From Patescibacteria group bacterium (GTDB lineage: Bacteria > Patescibacteriota > Microgenomatia > UBA10105 > UBA927), in NCBI GenBank assembly GCA_023379025.1, contig JAMCTH010000009.1, positions 5,092 to 69,091 on the forward strand: DNA of 64,000 nucleotides, given 5' to 3'. This document shows positions 15,250 through 20,602 of the stretch, one piece after another. The notes beneath the pieces were generated by a model. That model was not told the origin of the DNA, did no database searches, and worked only from the letters and a program-made list of their open reading frames with translations. The translations under genes were made by a program, and so were the position numbers. How positions within the stretch are numbered: position 1 is the first letter of the stretch; each line of letters begins with the position of its first letter.

Positions 15250-18200
15250 TTACTGCCACGCCTCGCAGATGAGCCGGAAGTCGCAGAAGTCACACTGTTT
15301 TCCGGGTGTCGGGTGAAAATCGCTCCGGGCTATTTCTTCTGCCTTTCCGGCAATCTCGCTTTTTGCGCGGGCGAGCTGCTCGTCGGTTCTTGATGCGGAT
15401 AGTTTCTCCTGACCCTCAAAAAAATAAAACGACACGATGACGTCATCCGGCTTTTTTGCCGCCATGCCCGGACCGGTTGCCGCAAGGGCATAGACGGTGA
15501 GCTGGAAATCATCCGCCGCATCACGGCTTTTCGGAGCATGTCCCGTTTTGTAATCGATAATTTCTATCTTTCCGTCCGGCAGCGGATCTACCCGGTCTAT
15601 TTTCCCCCCGAGAGTGAGAGCCGGCGTAATCTTTATCCTGAACGCCTGTTCAAGCGCCAGGGGGACGCGCTTCGGATCATAGCCGTGATCAAAATAACCG
15701 GCCAGTAATTCCCTTCCCCGGGCTTTCATCTTTTCCTCATATGCCTTATTTCCGTACCCCACCGGTGACCACTGGCGGTCAAACAGCGCCAGAAGCGTAT
15801 CTTTCGTCGGGTGTTGATTGTTTTGCACCAGCCGGTAAAATGCCTCGATGACCCTGTGCATGGTACTGCCGAAAGACAGTGCGGCACGGGGGGGAACGGG
15901 AATTTTCAGAATATAGCGGTACCGGTACTGGAGCGGACAGGTTTTGTACGTTTCAAGCTGCGAATACGACAGATAGGTGACGGCAGCCCGTCCGGTCTCC
16001 TGGTCATCCTCTGTCTGTTTGTCCTTTTCCCATCCGCGGAACGCAAGCTGTAATGCCTCCTGATGCTCTTCCGGCACGGGTTCACGCATGGTCTCGCCAA
16101 GGGCTTCCGCGATAAACGGGGAAAGCTTTTTTTCACGTTTCCCTTCCCCGTAATAGCGTGCCGCCGAAAAATACAGCCGGTCGCGGGCACGCGTCATACC
16201 GACATAAAAGAGCCGGCGCTCTTCTTCAATATGGAAATCGCCGGTCGGAAGGATCTCTTTAATGAGAGGGTCCGGCAACGGTATCTGTTCCTTCCGCCCG
16301 ATCGTCGGAAATCTGGCCGAAACAAGGTTTACGAGAAATACAACCGGGAACTCAAGTCCTTTGGATGAATGTACCGTCAGGATCGTTACCGCGTCATTTG
16401 CCACCCAATCCGTGTCCGCGGCAAGGGGAGATTCGCCGAGCTCGCTTGACAGCTCTATCCAGTCGCTTACGGGATAGACGCCCGCATCATCATGTTCCGC
16501 CTCATAGGTCTTGAGCTTATCGAAAAATTTGGCGATGTTCAGCGCCCTGCGTTCGTCTTTGGCGTTTTTGTAGGAAGCAAGAGTTTTCAGGAGCCCCGTG
16601 TCCTCCAGAAAATAGTAGAGTATCTGCCCTGCACTTTCTTTCTTTATGAGAGCCAGATGCCGGTAGATCATCCGAATGAGCCGCAAGATTTTTTCCGTCC
16701 CGTTCTCCGAAAGCTTCGGCACCGGAACGGTTCCGCTTTTCATCGCGTCACCGGCGGCATCCGGGGGCAGGAGTGTCTCGCAGGCCTCAAAAAGAGACTG
16801 TCCGTAGGTTCTGGCATACTGCATGAGCGCGGCCAGATCCCTGGGGTGGATAGCAAACAGATCCATGGAAAGTACCCGGTACATAGCAACACTATCATCA
16901 GGCGACGTAAGGAGTTTAAGATAGCTTATGAGATCCTTTACTTCCGCCTGCCGGAACAGCTGGCCCGGTCCCAAAAACTGATACGGAATCCCGGCGCGCT
17001 CAAGGGCGCGTGAAAATGGTTCTGCATGACTGTTCGCACGGACAAGGATGGCAAAATCTTTCCAGTCATACCCGCCTTCACGTATCTGATTTTCTGATGT
17101 TTGGTGTTTGATATTTGATATTGCTTGAGCCACCCCCTCAGCTTCATTCTCTACGCGGTCTCTGTACAGTACTTCAATAGGCGAACCGTTTATCCTCCGC
17201 ATGCTTTCGAGTTTTTTATCTATCCGTTCGGCAATCTCCAGGCGGTCCGGGTTATTCTGCTGGATAAGCGCATAGGAACGGTTAAGGATTTCTTGTGTGG
17301 AACGGTAATTTTTGGTAAGGACAACGATCTTCGCCCTGGGAAAGCGCTTCCGGAACTGGATGATGTTGCTTATTGCCGCACCCCGCCAGCGGTAAATTGC
17401 CTGATCGTCATCACCGACCACGGTAAGGTTTTTCTTCTTGCCTGCCAGAAGGACAGCCAGTTCATTCTGGGCAAAATTGGTATCCTGGAATTCATCGATG
17501 AGAATGTAACGGAACTGGTCCTGATACCGCTTTAAAATATTTTTTCTCGTACGAAAAAGTTTCAACGTATTACTTATCAGGTCTGCGTAATCCGCCACTC
17601 CTTCTTTCACTTTTAGTTCTTCGTATGTCCTATATGCCCGCGCAAGTTCGAAATATTTTTCACCTTCTTCGTTTCTCCCCTCTGTCATCGCGAGACCGTT
17701 CTTACGGCGTGGCGATCTCTTATTTATTTGAGATTGCTTCGCTTCGCTCGCAATGACAGACGTAAATATATGGTCTTTCACCCATCCTAAGTATTGCTCT
17801 GGTGTGATATCTTCGTCCTTAAGTCTGCTAAAATGCTGCAGCATTCCTGCAATAAATTTAGTTGGATTGCCGAGCGGGCGGAAATAGGAAAGATCAAAGG
17901 AAAACAGGTGTCTACGGAAAAACTGTATGGTTTCCGCTTCGGTCATGAGACGGTATCCGGGATCGTAGCCGATATTGATCGCCTCTGCCCGAAGTATACG
18001 GTCGCAAAATGCATGGAACGTGGATATCCACATGTCGGGTAGCCCATACGGAAGGAGCATATCGATGCGTTCTTCCATCTCACGGCTCGCTTTTTCTGTA
18101 AAAGTAAGGGCGAGAATCCCGTCCGGTCGGACGGATTTTTTTGTTATGAGGTGGGCGATGCGTTCTGTGACAACGGTTGTTTTTCCGGTCCCGGCTCCCG

Positions 18201-18288
18201 CGATGACAAGAAGCGGCCCTTCACCAAAGCCGATTGCACGTTTTTGTTCAGCATTGAGGGTATACCGGTGCTTATTCTCGGTCTTCAT
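15250..18288 (-). CDS. UvrD-type helicase fused to C-terminal PD-(D/E)XK nuclease with Cas4/AddB-type 4Cys Fe-S cluster (AddA-like single-chain helicase-nuclease)
   Basis: 1012 aa. N-terminal AGAGTGKTTVVTERI, TFTEKASREM and ILIDEFQDTN motifs. C-terminal ...IEIIDYKTG (nuclease core). Cys pattern C...(CDFCDFRLIC) equals Cx2Cx5C at the extreme C-terminus with an upstream Cys (TCPLQY). Confidence 0.8.
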   Translation of the reverse strand: MKTENKHRYTLNAEQKRAIGFGEGPLLVIAGAGTGKTTVVTERIAHLITKKSVRPDGILALTFTEKASREMEERIDMLLPYGLPDMWISTFHAFCDRILRAEAINIGYDPGYRLMTEAETIQFFRRHLFSFDLSYFRPLGNPTKFIAGMLQHFSRLKDEDITPEQYLGWVKDHIFTSVIASEAKQSQINKRSPRRKNGLAMTEGRNEEGEKYFELARAYRTYEELKVKEGVADYADLISNTLKLFRTRKNILKRYQDQFRYILIDEFQDTNFAQNELAVLLAGKKKNLTVVGDDDQAIYRWRGAAISNIIQFRKRFPRAKIVVLTKNYRSTQEILNRSYALIQQNNPDRLEIAERIDKKLESMRRINGSPIEVLYRDRVENEAEGVAQAISNIKHQTSENQIREGGYDWKDFAILVRANSHAEPFSRALERAGIPYQFLGPGQLFRQAEVKDLISYLKLLTSPDDSVAMYRVLSMDLFAIHPRDLAALMQYARTYGQSLFEACETLLPPDAAGDAMKSGTVPVPKLSENGTEKILRLIRMIYRHLALIKKESAGQILYYFLEDTGLLKTLASYKNAKDERRALNIAKFFDKLKTYEAEHDDAGVYPVSDWIELSSELGESPLAADTDWVANDAVTILTVHSSKGLEFPVVFLVNLVSARFPTIGRKEQIPLPDPLIKEILPTGDFHIEEERRLFYVGMTRARDRLYFSAARYYGEGKREKKLSPFIAEALGETMREPVPEEHQEALQLAFRGWEKDKQTEDDQETGRAAVTYLSYSQLETYKTCPLQYRYRYILKIPVPPRAALSFGSTMHRVIEAFYRLVQNNQHPTKDTLLALFDRQWSPVGYGNKAYEEKMKARGRELLAGYFDHGYDPKRVPLALEQAFRIKITPALTLGGKIDRVDPLPDGKIEIIDYKTGHAPKSRDAADDFQLTVYALAATGPGMAAKKPDDVIVSFYFFEGQEKLSASRTDEQLARAKSEIAGKAEEIARSDFHPTPGKQCDFCDFRLICEAWQ

Positions 18289-18330
18289 GGGTTTACTCCG
18301 GCCTTAGTATACCGCGGGTCGCAGCTCTGT

Positions 18331-19542: not shown

Positions 19543-19588
19543 AAGCCTATTATACCGCAGCAGCTATAAGAATGTTGTCCTGGGTTAT

Positions 19589-20602
19589 TTAGTCCGAAGC
19601 GGATTCATGGAGGAACTTTGTTCTGTTAAGTTTTTGGCCTAACAGCGAAAAACCAGATGATACAACATTCATGCTGTTATATGCGTTACCTACATGCCGT
19701 CCAAGAATTCCTAAATTTTCCTCAATTTTATTGTAATCCTTCTGGATTGCCCGGAGAATCTGAAACACCTCACGGGATTTTTCTTCAAGCTCTTTGCCTT
19801 GGAAACTCAGAAGCAGTACCTGAAGGTGCGCGTAAAGCGTATTGGGAGATACGGGATATACCCTGAGCCTCTGCGCATATTCCATTAGATCGCTCATGGT
19901 TGCGATCTCGTAATACACTGATTCAGACGGTATGTACATGAGGGCAAAATCCATGGTGCCCTCTTCCGGGAGGATATATTTTTTGCTTATATCGCTTATA
20001 TGTTTTTTTACATCCGCACTAAACTCCCGTCTTGCAGCAGCGCGCTCCGACTCCGTTTCGCCGCGGTGCATGAGTGTAAAATGTTCCATCGGAAATTTCG
20101 AGTCGATACAGAGAAGTCCGGCATCCGTCTTCAGAACCGCATCGACTTTGACGCCTGACCGGAACGGATACTGGAGATGGAATGCATGCTTGGGAAACGT
20201 CTGCCCGATCATGTCACGGAGTACCTGCTCACCGATATTCCCGCGCAGTTTTGGCGACTGCAGAAATTCCTGAAGGCTCCTGATGCCGCGCCCGACTTCC
20301 GACATCTCACCCAAATTATGTTTGAGATCGCCAATCACGCGTGCCGCAGTATCAAGCCGCTCATTGAGTTGTTTCGTGTTAGCCTGAAGAAGTTTTGCGA
20401 CATCTGATGTCGACCCACGCATTGCCTCATTAAGAGTCTTATTGGTTGATTCGATGGTTACCTGCATACTTTTGAGCCACTCAATCATGGTCGGATCTTC
20501 TCTCTCACGACCAAGCTTCGATAACGCACGTATAACAAGCCACGAGAGGACCGTAAAACCAACAAAAATGATAAAAATAAGTATGAAGAATTCTCCTTGC
20601 AT
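19589..20602 (-). CDS. rmuC: DNA recombination protein RmuC
   Basis: N-terminal TM, long coiled-coil, and C-terminal RmuC core (ELLCIDSKFPMEHF...LMYIPSESVYYE). Confidence 0.8.
   Translation of the reverse strand: MQGEFFILIFIIFVGFTVLSWLVIRALSKLGREREDPTMIEWLKSMQVTIESTNKTLNEAMRGSTSDVAKLLQANTKQLNERLDTAARVIGDLKHNLGEMSEVGRGIRSLQEFLQSPKLRGNIGEQVLRDMIGQTFPKHAFHLQYPFRSGVKVDAVLKTDAGLLCIDSKFPMEHFTLMHRGETESERAAARREFSADVKKHISDISKKYILPEEGTMDFALMYIPSESVYYEIATMSDLMEYAQRLRVYPVSPNTLYAHLQVLLLSFQGKELEEKSREVFQILRAIQKDYNKIEENLGILGRHVGNAYNSMNVVSSGFSLLGQKLNRTKFLHESASD

Follow-up and report, generated by a model that had tools for sequence, protein, structure and literature searches.

The window analysed here, a stretch of 64,000 nucleotides (64 kb) of contig JAMCTH010000009.1 of a Patescibacteria group bacterium, carries three consecutive genes on its minus strand: rmuC, a gene coding for a serine hydrolase fused to a DUF6879 domain, and a gene coding for a single-chain helicase-nuclease, which is called HelNuc below. 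It is proposed that rmuC and HelNuc are kept as DNA-processing neighbours within a vertically inherited chromosomal block of these Candidate Phyla Radiation (CPR) bacteria, that the hydrolase is a passenger of a variable slot between them, and that the genes give separate transcripts; we hold this view as a whole with confidence slightly better than even. A preliminary description of the sequence had suggested that the trio forms an operon and a dedicated nucleic-acid-processing module for recombination, repair or anti-phage defence. Its gene coordinates proved exact, with gaps of 46 nt (rmuC/hydrolase) and 42 nt (hydrolase/HelNuc), and of the suggested module the linked RmuC and HelNuc neighbours stood, while the hydrolase and the defence option had to be given up.

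RmuC genes were found near HelNuc genes in several CPR lineages, in at least four arrangements among the loci retrieved from relatives (labelled L with a number). The arrangement of Microgenomates is RmuC, slot gene, HelNuc in the same direction. In the Peregrinibacteria-type arrangement the order is reversed, with one or two opposite-strand genes between HelNuc and RmuC (L084, L091, L093), and the context is that between ClpB-S1-(YlxR) and IF2, that is, upstream of infB with S1 or ylxR before. In the third arrangement the two genes are convergent and 0.4-0.7 kb apart, in a clade with a 28% identical HelNuc (L135, L155), and in the fourth RmuC is located 4.6-5.5 kb upstream of HelNuc (L110, L112). 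A comparison was made with plain UvrD control loci taken from the same metagenome scan as the HelNuc loci, RmuC being detected by a profile built from CPR sequences. RmuC was present within the fetched flanks (6 kb) at 7 of the 34 HelNuc loci and at none of the 46 control loci (Fisher p=0.0017). Because of this difference, and of the proximity in several lineages and arrangements, a functional link between RmuC and HelNuc is plausible, although unproven. The literature search combining RmuC and Patescibacteria returned no papers.

Two of these arrangements have surroundings that deserve a separate mention. At the Peregrinibacteria-type loci (L084 5001-10546, L091 6001-11757, L093 5971-10729) HelNuc and RmuC interrupt the usual nusA-ylxR-infB neighbourhood. 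At the convergent loci (L135 5989-10500, L155 2628-6808), where RmuC stands downstream of HelNuc, an extracytoplasmic function (ECF) sigma factor is encoded upstream and PmbA/TldD beyond.

The chromosomal setting of the trio was followed in 80 genomic loci, which had been retrieved with a profile of the hydrolase fusion and onto which the window proteins were then mapped. The order RmuC ... hydrolase-HelNuc is shared by about 12 of the 80, and all of these also share both flanks, TatD-MetRS with a small membrane open reading frame (ORF) on one side and FemAB-FemAB-PcrA on the other. When HelNuc was taken as the starting point instead, three further genomes of Gottesmanbacteria were found to have this block too. 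The extended order in relatives with 55-70% HelNuc identity is TatD-MetRS-c9, RmuC-slot-HelNuc, FemAB-FemAB-PcrA-TIM-LytR, where c9 denotes the cluster of the 105-aa membrane ORF, whose position is kept in L002, L006, L008, L014, L018, L020 and L044. The MetRS/TatD flank recurs in L001, L002, L006, L008, L018, L020, L041, L044, L081-L083, L087, L089 and L100, FemAB downstream of HelNuc in L081-L083, L087, L089, L090, L092 and L100, and beyond FemAB the PcrA-like UvrD, which in the window lacks a nuclease domain, in L081-L083, L087, L089 and L090. The block persists even at about 40% HelNuc identity (L087 of Chisholmbacteria, L089, L090, L092, L100). Within the block the RmuC orthologues are 72-79% and the HelNuc orthologues 61-70% identical.

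Since the same order recurs in relatives, the trio is not a chance pattern of ORFs. The conservation of gene order, named in the preliminary description as a check on the trio, thus gave a divided answer: the order recurs, but only as part of a larger housekeeping synteny in which the middle gene varies, and the trio is not a self-contained unit. What the trio belongs to is an ancient block of housekeeping genes, passed on vertically among CPR bacteria of the Microgenomates type. The window around it is ordinary chromosome, with genes for MurJ, a class I tRNA synthetase, two class A penicillin-binding proteins, GroEL and LytR besides the PcrA-like UvrD, the two FemAB, MetRS, TatD and glycosyltransferases; the Rfam and tRNA scans of the window yielded nothing relevant, neither a tRNA nor an Rfam match.

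The position between rmuC and HelNuc is occupied in relatives either by the hydrolase-DUF6879 fusion or by a short hydrolase without DUF6879 (L041, L044, L046, L081, L082), and in L020 by four tandem hydrolase paralogues. Elsewhere it holds a 167-aa protein of unknown function (L083), a GNAT acetyltransferase (L087), or genes for a Trp_repressor-like protein, an MFS_3 transporter, an opposite-strand YdjM, a Band_7 protein or a DUF1749 hydrolase; another variant is a 5-kb insert with a gene resembling a type IV secretion system (T4SS) coupling ATPase, and in L089 and L090 there are only tiny ORFs. In L083, L087, L089, L090, L092, L100, L114 and the Peregrinibacteria the hydrolase is absent or another gene takes its place, and it adjoined HelNuc at none of the 34 loci of the metagenome sample. 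Additionally, about 35 other loci, from Gottesman-, Roizman-, Woese- and Dojkabacteria, have the fusion gene but neither RmuC nor HelNuc within 8 kb, and none of their neighbours recurs. Since the middle slot is variable and the fusion gene stands elsewhere among unrelated neighbours, the hydrolase-DUF6879 protein is an interchangeable passenger of the slot and no part of a DNA-processing module, as opposed to what the preliminary description had entertained. Unrelated neighbours elsewhere, and a promoter of the hydrolase's own, are among the observations that the preliminary description had named as counting against it. Two tandem expansions were observed in passing: L020 (7423-10455) has four YdeN-like hydrolase copies, one of them with DUF6879, between RmuC and HelNuc, and L016 (6787-9173) has two complete hydrolase-DUF6879 fusions in tandem.

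Each gene of the trio is preceded by a promoter-like box of its own. A TACAAT or TAGAAT hexamer stands 8-9 nt before the rmuC start in six orthologues (L002, L006, L014, L018, L041, L090), and TATAAT 6-10 nt before the start of most of the orthologous hydrolase genes (L002, L005, L006, L014, L018, L041, L046). The element in front of HelNuc (TAGACA-16-TATACT) is the top promoter match of the region (10/12), and 15 of the 16 loci with at least 55% identity, as well as L090, have a perfect TATAAT located 6-10 nt ahead of the start of HelNuc. These -10 boxes are conserved at orthologous positions irrespective of the gene upstream. Among 53 window genes TATAAT-like hexamers cluster at -30 to -1 relative to the start, where three 10-nt bins contain 28 matches, compared with about 1-2 per bin elsewhere. 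This suggests that the mRNAs of this CPR genome are mostly leaderless or have very short leaders, and the most likely situation for rmuC, hydrolase and HelNuc is that each has a promoter of its own giving such an mRNA. As regards the three-gene operon suggested by the preliminary description, the same strand and the short gaps were indeed found, but each gene has its own conserved -10 box 6-17 nt before the ATG, the gene set is not conserved and opposite-strand genes are inserted among the trio members in relatives; the three genes look like separate transcripts rather than one classic operon. Tight same-strand spacing is no sign of an operon in these genomes, because the predicted promoters sit directly against the start codons.

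The boxes are a more general feature of the window. About half of its genes have a TATAAT-like box starting within 30 nt upstream of the start (e.g. the genes at 1120-2772, 25782-27266, 46046-48304, 56000-56374 and 57330-58391), a Shine-Dalgarno sequence is present in few, and other Gottesmanbacteria have kept the boxes at the orthologous loci. Between rmuC and the divergent gene of the 105-aa membrane ORF there are 47 nt (20603-20649) with a TACAAT box on each strand, which implies putative back-to-back promoters for two near-leaderless genes.

The RmuC protein was clearly recognized by its domain PF02646 (5.9e-49, 167 bits against a cut-off of 26) at residues 65-327, in agreement with the preliminary identification. 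The domain follows a transmembrane helix at about residues 5-27, in the hydrophobic N-terminus FFILIFIIFVGFTVLSWLVI, and a coiled-coil region. D154 and D167-x-K169 are invariant in eight RmuC proteins of 34-74% identity. An N-terminal transmembrane helix and a D...DxK nuclease motif are the features of the RmuC family (PMC1189080); the domain, the helix and the PD-(D/E)XK residues were all found here, and the protein is a predicted membrane-anchored RmuC-family PD-(D/E)XK nuclease. The same three features make up its likeness to E. coli RmuC (YigN) and to ShdA, nevertheless it is shorter than E. coli RmuC (337 vs 475 aa) and reaches 30 bits against an equivalog cut-off of 810. Genetic work in E. 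coli has shown that RmuC restricts inversions at short inverted repeats, and the protein is predicted to cleave DNA structures as a PD-(D/E)XK nuclease (PMC1189080).

HelNuc combines in its 1012 residues a UvrD motor, a PD-(D/E)XK nuclease and a C-x2-C-x5-C motif, and this part of the preliminary description was borne out by Pfam (UvrD-helicase PF00580 1.9e-76, UvrD_C PF13361 1.2e-53, PDDEXK_1 PF12705 6.9e-45) and by the motifs. The motor has Walker A GAGTGKT at 31, DEFQDT at 265, VGDDDQ at 291 and YVGMTRAR at 695, all invariant across 11 aligned sequences (ten of them 35-45% identical to the first), which are the hallmarks of a superfamily 1A (SF1A) helicase of the UvrD/PcrA type. The nuclease domain contains GKIDRVD at 895, IIDYK at 910 and QxxxY at 929 (QLTVY), and its predicted iron-sulfur (Fe-S) cysteines are C784 and those of CDFCDFRLIC (C999-x2-C1002-x5-C1008); the catalytic residues are invariant, as are the cysteines, the latter in homologues down to 28% identity. 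The NCBIfam models TIGR00372 cas4 (8.9e-13) and addB_alphas (1.6e-12) match the domain, and by its sequence motifs it is assigned to the Cas4/AddB-type Fe-S PD-(D/E)XK nucleases. HelNuc is widespread and well conserved in CPR.

Its structural relatives include PcrA (1pjr, 3.1e-90) and AdnB (6ppu_B, 5.4e-48): the closest solved relatives are PcrA, UvrD and Rep, and the closest nuclease-bearing one is AdnB of the mycobacterial AdnAB. HelNuc scores far below the equivalog cut-offs of addA_Gpos (201.5 vs 707.65), recB (174.7 vs 696) and addB_alphas (46.4 vs 486.5). With AdnAB, AddAB and RecBCD it has in common a UvrD-type motor joined to a RecB-family nuclease, which in HelNuc is of AddB/Cas4-like type with a predicted Fe-S cluster, and it appears to most resemble one subunit of AdnAB or AddAB. 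However, those complexes are heterodimers or trimers whose subunits come from adjacent genes, whereas HelNuc has no adjacent gene for a second subunit: its neighbours are the hydrolase and FemAB, none of AddB/AdnA/RecC type, and the large ORFs of the window include none that is RecB-, RecC-, RecD- or AddB-like. In architecture HelNuc is the same as the UvrD-Cas4-like (pfam12705) fusion family, in which an SF1 UvrD-like helicase is followed by a Cas4-like nuclease with four Fe-S cysteines and which has been described as the largest pfam12705 branch (Hudaiberdiev et al. 2017, PMC5704561). The contexts described there are type III restriction-modification (R-M) genes, Dcm/Vsr genes or no conserved context, RmuC being unmentioned (PMC5704561), whereas the HelNuc studied here stands in a housekeeping block with RmuC; the likeness is judged by architecture.

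Some HelNuc relatives are enlarged or have unusual neighbours. Some orthologues (P0167, P0195, P0236, P0302) are 1328-1423 aa long and bear an intein according to precomputed PF14890 matches. In L002 (10157-11233) HelNuc contains an in-frame insert, about 359 aa in length, which follows residue ~297 and is beside helicase motif III. In L088 a 942-aa acidic protein with no Pfam match (2133-4961) is encoded 40 nt upstream of HelNuc; it was considered as an AddB-like partner of HelNuc and has no counterpart in the lineage of the window.

The N-terminal half of the fusion protein is assigned to the YdeN/RBBP9 serine hydrolases, as judged from its motifs and its model. It is matched by PF06821 Ser_hydrolase at residues 60-193 (8.7e-16, 58.7 bits against a cut-off of 22), its triad S85 (GHSLG), D155 and H182 is invariant in 68 sequences, and the AlphaFold2 (AF2) model of the domain matched B. 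subtilis YdeN (1uxo, 2.8e-13) and human RBBP9 (3.9e-10). Fold, PF06821 and the Ser-Asp-His triad are shared with these proteins, nevertheless the members known already comprise one domain and about 190 aa, and the protein here has an extra DUF6879 domain of 200 aa. The fusion of a hydrolase with a further domain had been noticed in the preliminary description and was confirmed. PF21806 (DUF6879) matches residues 277-381 with 22.8 bits in the whole protein, against a cut-off of 23.9, and with 25.0 bits in the domain alone; 23 of 26 homologous domains match it, the best with 2.2e-9.

The structure of this C-terminal domain, the prediction of which had been recommended, is modelled with a pLDDT of 87 as a fold of the phospholipase D (PLD) superfamily and is apparently non-catalytic. 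Foldseek matched it to PLD 7e0m (1.9e-5), TrmBL2 (2.5e-5) and Nuc 1byr (1.1e-4), and also to NucT and Zucchini; for 7e0m, 1byr, 6ehi and 4gem the E values range from 1.9e-5 to 1.8e-3 and the query-normalised TM-scores from 0.48 to 0.58. The modelled fold is thus common to Nuc, NucT, Zucchini and PLD3 and to the C-terminal domain of TrmB/TrmBL2. No invariant or near-invariant His or Lys of a catalytic HxK(x)4D motif was found at residues 203-403 in alignments of 68 and of 26 sequences, by which DUF6879 resembles the non-catalytic TrmB domain and not the PLD nucleases. Because its PLD fold lacks the catalytic HKD residues, the most likely role of the domain is to bind a ligand or substrate, by analogy with the TrmB C-terminal domain; a hidden nuclease was considered and rejected, the HKD residues being absent from the PLD-like fold.

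The fusion protein has 351 homologues, nearly all in CPR, the named ones mostly in Gottesmanbacteria, a group to which the bacterium of the window apparently belongs too. The DUF6879 domains form a small family, with 169 clusters at 50% identity. DUF6879-like domains were found elsewhere (P0384, P0391, P0396, P0404, P0370) joined to S-adenosylmethionine (SAM) methyltransferases, to a Ser/Thr kinase plus methyltransferase and to a TIR domain, and also to Ser_hydrolase in reverse order, so that DUF6879 looks like a shuffled module for binding or sensing. The fusion to TIR gives a hint of conflict systems. A weaker possibility is that the hydrolase-DUF6879 protein might act as a stand-alone sensor-effector of a new kind; it is suggested by the joining of this HKD-less PLD-fold domain to TIR, kinase and methyltransferase elsewhere. 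The literature search returned no papers on DUF6879.

Several observations weigh against the view that rmuC and HelNuc are maintained together as DNA-processing neighbours with the hydrolase as a passenger and with separate transcripts. The loci compared are phylogenetically related, so the Fisher test overstates their independence, and among loci of at least 12 kb the counts are 4 of 14 and 0 of 13 (p about 0.10). There is no RmuC within 5-6 kb in Magasanik-, Dojka- and other lineages (L085, L086, L088, L095 and others). The adjacency in Microgenomates is co-inherited with FemAB, MetRS and PcrA, and synteny inertia could account for much of it. As for the hydrolase, most Gottesmanbacteria loci encode some YdeN-like protein directly upstream of HelNuc. 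The divergent contig L055, which lacks the other genes of the block, also has one in front of its HelNuc (28% identical); a lineage-specific link between hydrolase and HelNuc is possible. No terminator-like site was found in the two intergenic gaps of the trio, and read-through co-transcription is possible too.

Contig L055 itself has genes for 23S and 5S rRNA, its hydrolase gene is frameshifted, and its 'Methylomirabilis' title looks like a binning error. A recoded genome (table 25) as the cause of its sparse ORFs was considered and rejected; it is a bacterial contig of 29% GC.

The most serious competitor, to which we would give a real but clearly minor share of belief, is that three independent housekeeping genes are simply carried along in a slowly rearranging part of CPR chromosomes, with no functional link. 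The block does hold the unrelated MetRS, TatD, FemAB, PcrA, TIM and LytR together, each gene of the trio has its promoter-like box, and several lineages have HelNuc and no RmuC nearby. Inertia of this kind is, however, difficult to reconcile with the Peregrinibacteria, where the two genes are close in a wholly different context (ClpB-S1-(YlxR) ... IF2), with their convergent position in the 28%-identity clade, and with the excess over the control loci, as only about 1% would be expected by chance for one given gene within 6 kb. At the other extreme all three genes might work together, the hydrolase regulating or processing RmuC or HelNuc with DUF6879 as its sensor, in analogy with ShdB restraining ShdA. 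There is a precedent in Shield II, where an RmuC nuclease is paired with a hydrolase-like, peptidase-like negative regulator, ShdB (PMC10270631); a YdeN-like hydrolase, fused or short, stands immediately upstream of HelNuc in 13 loci (L001, L002, L004, L006, L008, L018, L020, L041, L044, L046, L081, L082, L055), and the fusions of DUF6879-like domains to TIR, kinase and methyltransferase would suit such a role. We nevertheless regard this as improbable in view of the loci in which the hydrolase is absent or replaced, its absence beside HelNuc throughout the metagenome sample, the solitary fusion genes with unrelated neighbours, the other genes, some of them on the opposite strand, that split the trio in L005, L014 and L018, and the TATAAT box that HelNuc keeps for itself.

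Least probable is an anti-phage system in which an RmuC nuclease and a UvrD-Cas4 helicase-nuclease would be joined by a hydrolase as effector or sensor. Defence systems such as Shield, DRT-associated genes and Gabija include RmuC domains and UvrD-like helicases, UvrD-Cas4 fusions have been found beside type III R-M and Dcm/Vsr genes (PMC5704561), and weak PADLOC matches were obtained. However, when the trio and nine neighbours were scanned with PADLOC, only generic helicase, RmuC and TatD domain matches appeared, and the hydrolase and the small ORFs of unknown function gave none: HelNuc matched GajB/RTasHel, for which the PcrA-like neighbour scores higher, and the sole match of the RmuC protein was RTasRmuC (9.4e-8). 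No GajA-like gene stands in the locus, so far as Gabija is concerned, and the GajB matches are generic; no neighbour has a reverse transcriptase domain as in DRT/UG systems, and no R-M or other defence gene lies nearby. Shield has been reported only in Pseudomonas defence islands, with ShdA alone or with ShdB-E partners (PMC10270631), and RmuC here has no such context but housekeeping flanks, although PADLOC 2.0.0 may hold no ShdA model. Furthermore the genes stand at a fixed chromosomal position, are near-universal in the clade and are highly conserved, with the HelNuc and RmuC identities given above, which is the opposite of patchy, mobile defence islands. An anti-phage defence system was therefore rejected on account of the generic matches, the housekeeping flanks and the vertical inheritance with 55-79% identity across the clade; the statement of the preliminary description that the combination is not known as a described defence system agrees with the domain-level matches.

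If rmuC and HelNuc are indeed DNA-processing neighbours, their action might be pictured as follows, the steps of HelNuc being inferred from the established knowledge of PcrA/UvrD, AddAB/AdnAB and Cas4. HelNuc would load at DNA ends or gaps, translocate in the 3'-5' direction and unwind the duplex, and its Fe-S nuclease would trim one strand, leaving recombinogenic single-stranded DNA. At the membrane RmuC could act on these intermediates or on related ones, in a putative division of labour. The hydrolase would be an esterase or aminopeptidase working on a small molecule or peptide, with the PLD-fold domain binding ligand or substrate and with no obligate role in DNA processing. A bolder version, which we consider rather unlikely, is that RmuC and HelNuc make up a CPR-typical two-part machine for DNA-end processing or recombination control, a minimal stand-in for AddAB/AdnAB/RecBCD, in which the membrane-anchored RmuC would supply a second nuclease or structure-specific cleavage; if true, it would explain the neighbourhood of the two genes in several lineages and arrangements.

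The function of RmuC is poorly understood even in E. coli, and to our knowledge the DNA repair of CPR bacteria, which have small genomes, has not been the subject of experimental study. HelNuc beside RmuC is a concrete candidate for a break-resection or recombination-control pathway of CPR, and RmuC would gain in HelNuc a testable partner. It should be emphasized that all the parts come from known families and no new kind of system is involved; what is new is modest, namely that RmuC and HelNuc are neighbours in CPR and that DUF6879 is assigned a fold.

Table 1. Features of the rmuC-HelNuc region, with positions in the window
Feature	Position	Strand	Remarks
rmuC	19589..20602	-	337 aa
Serine hydrolase-DUF6879 fusion gene	18331..19542	-	403 aa; variable-slot passenger gene
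YdeN/RBBP9-type alpha/beta serine hydrolase domain (predicted), aa 1-200	18943..19542	-	PF06821, triad, AF2 match
DUF6879 domain, aa 203-395	18358..18936	-	PLD-superfamily fold (modelled), no HKD motif
HelNuc	15250..18288	-	1012 aa
UvrD/PcrA-like motor, aa 11-711	16156..18258	-	PF00580, PF13361
PD-(D/E)XK nuclease domain, aa 773-1009	15262..15972	-	PF12705, TIGR00372, addB_alphas
TACAAT, -10-like box	20612..20617	-	9 nt upstream of rmuC ATG
TATAAT, -10 box	19549..19554	-	6 nt upstream of hydrolase ATG
TAGACA-16-TATACT, promoter-like	18306..18333	-	ends 17 nt upstream of HelNuc ATG
Small membrane ORF, 105 aa	20650..20967	+	divergent from rmuC; belongs to conserved block
MetRS and TatD	22604..25005	+	housekeeping flank of syntenic block
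PcrA-like UvrD (10838-12907), FemAB family (13159-14184 and 14211-15077)	10838..15077	+	other housekeeping flank

Some minor observations were made on the window and on the retrieved loci. The GC content is 44-48% over window positions 18000-24000, where rmuC, the hydrolase, three small ORFs and MetRS are located, and 52-56% elsewhere. The three small ORFs (21124-22575; two of unknown function and one cupin) are extra in comparison with most syntenic relatives, and an 807-aa ORF at 6161-8584 has no Pfam match at E<=1e-5. Several CPR-type loci (L003, L004, L006, L008, L010, L011, L019, L036, L048, L055) come from metagenome-assembled genomes with discordant titles ('uncultured Gammaproteobacteria', 'archaeon', 'Woesearchaeota', 'Micrarchaeota', 'Methylomirabilis'), which are probably errors of binning or taxonomy.

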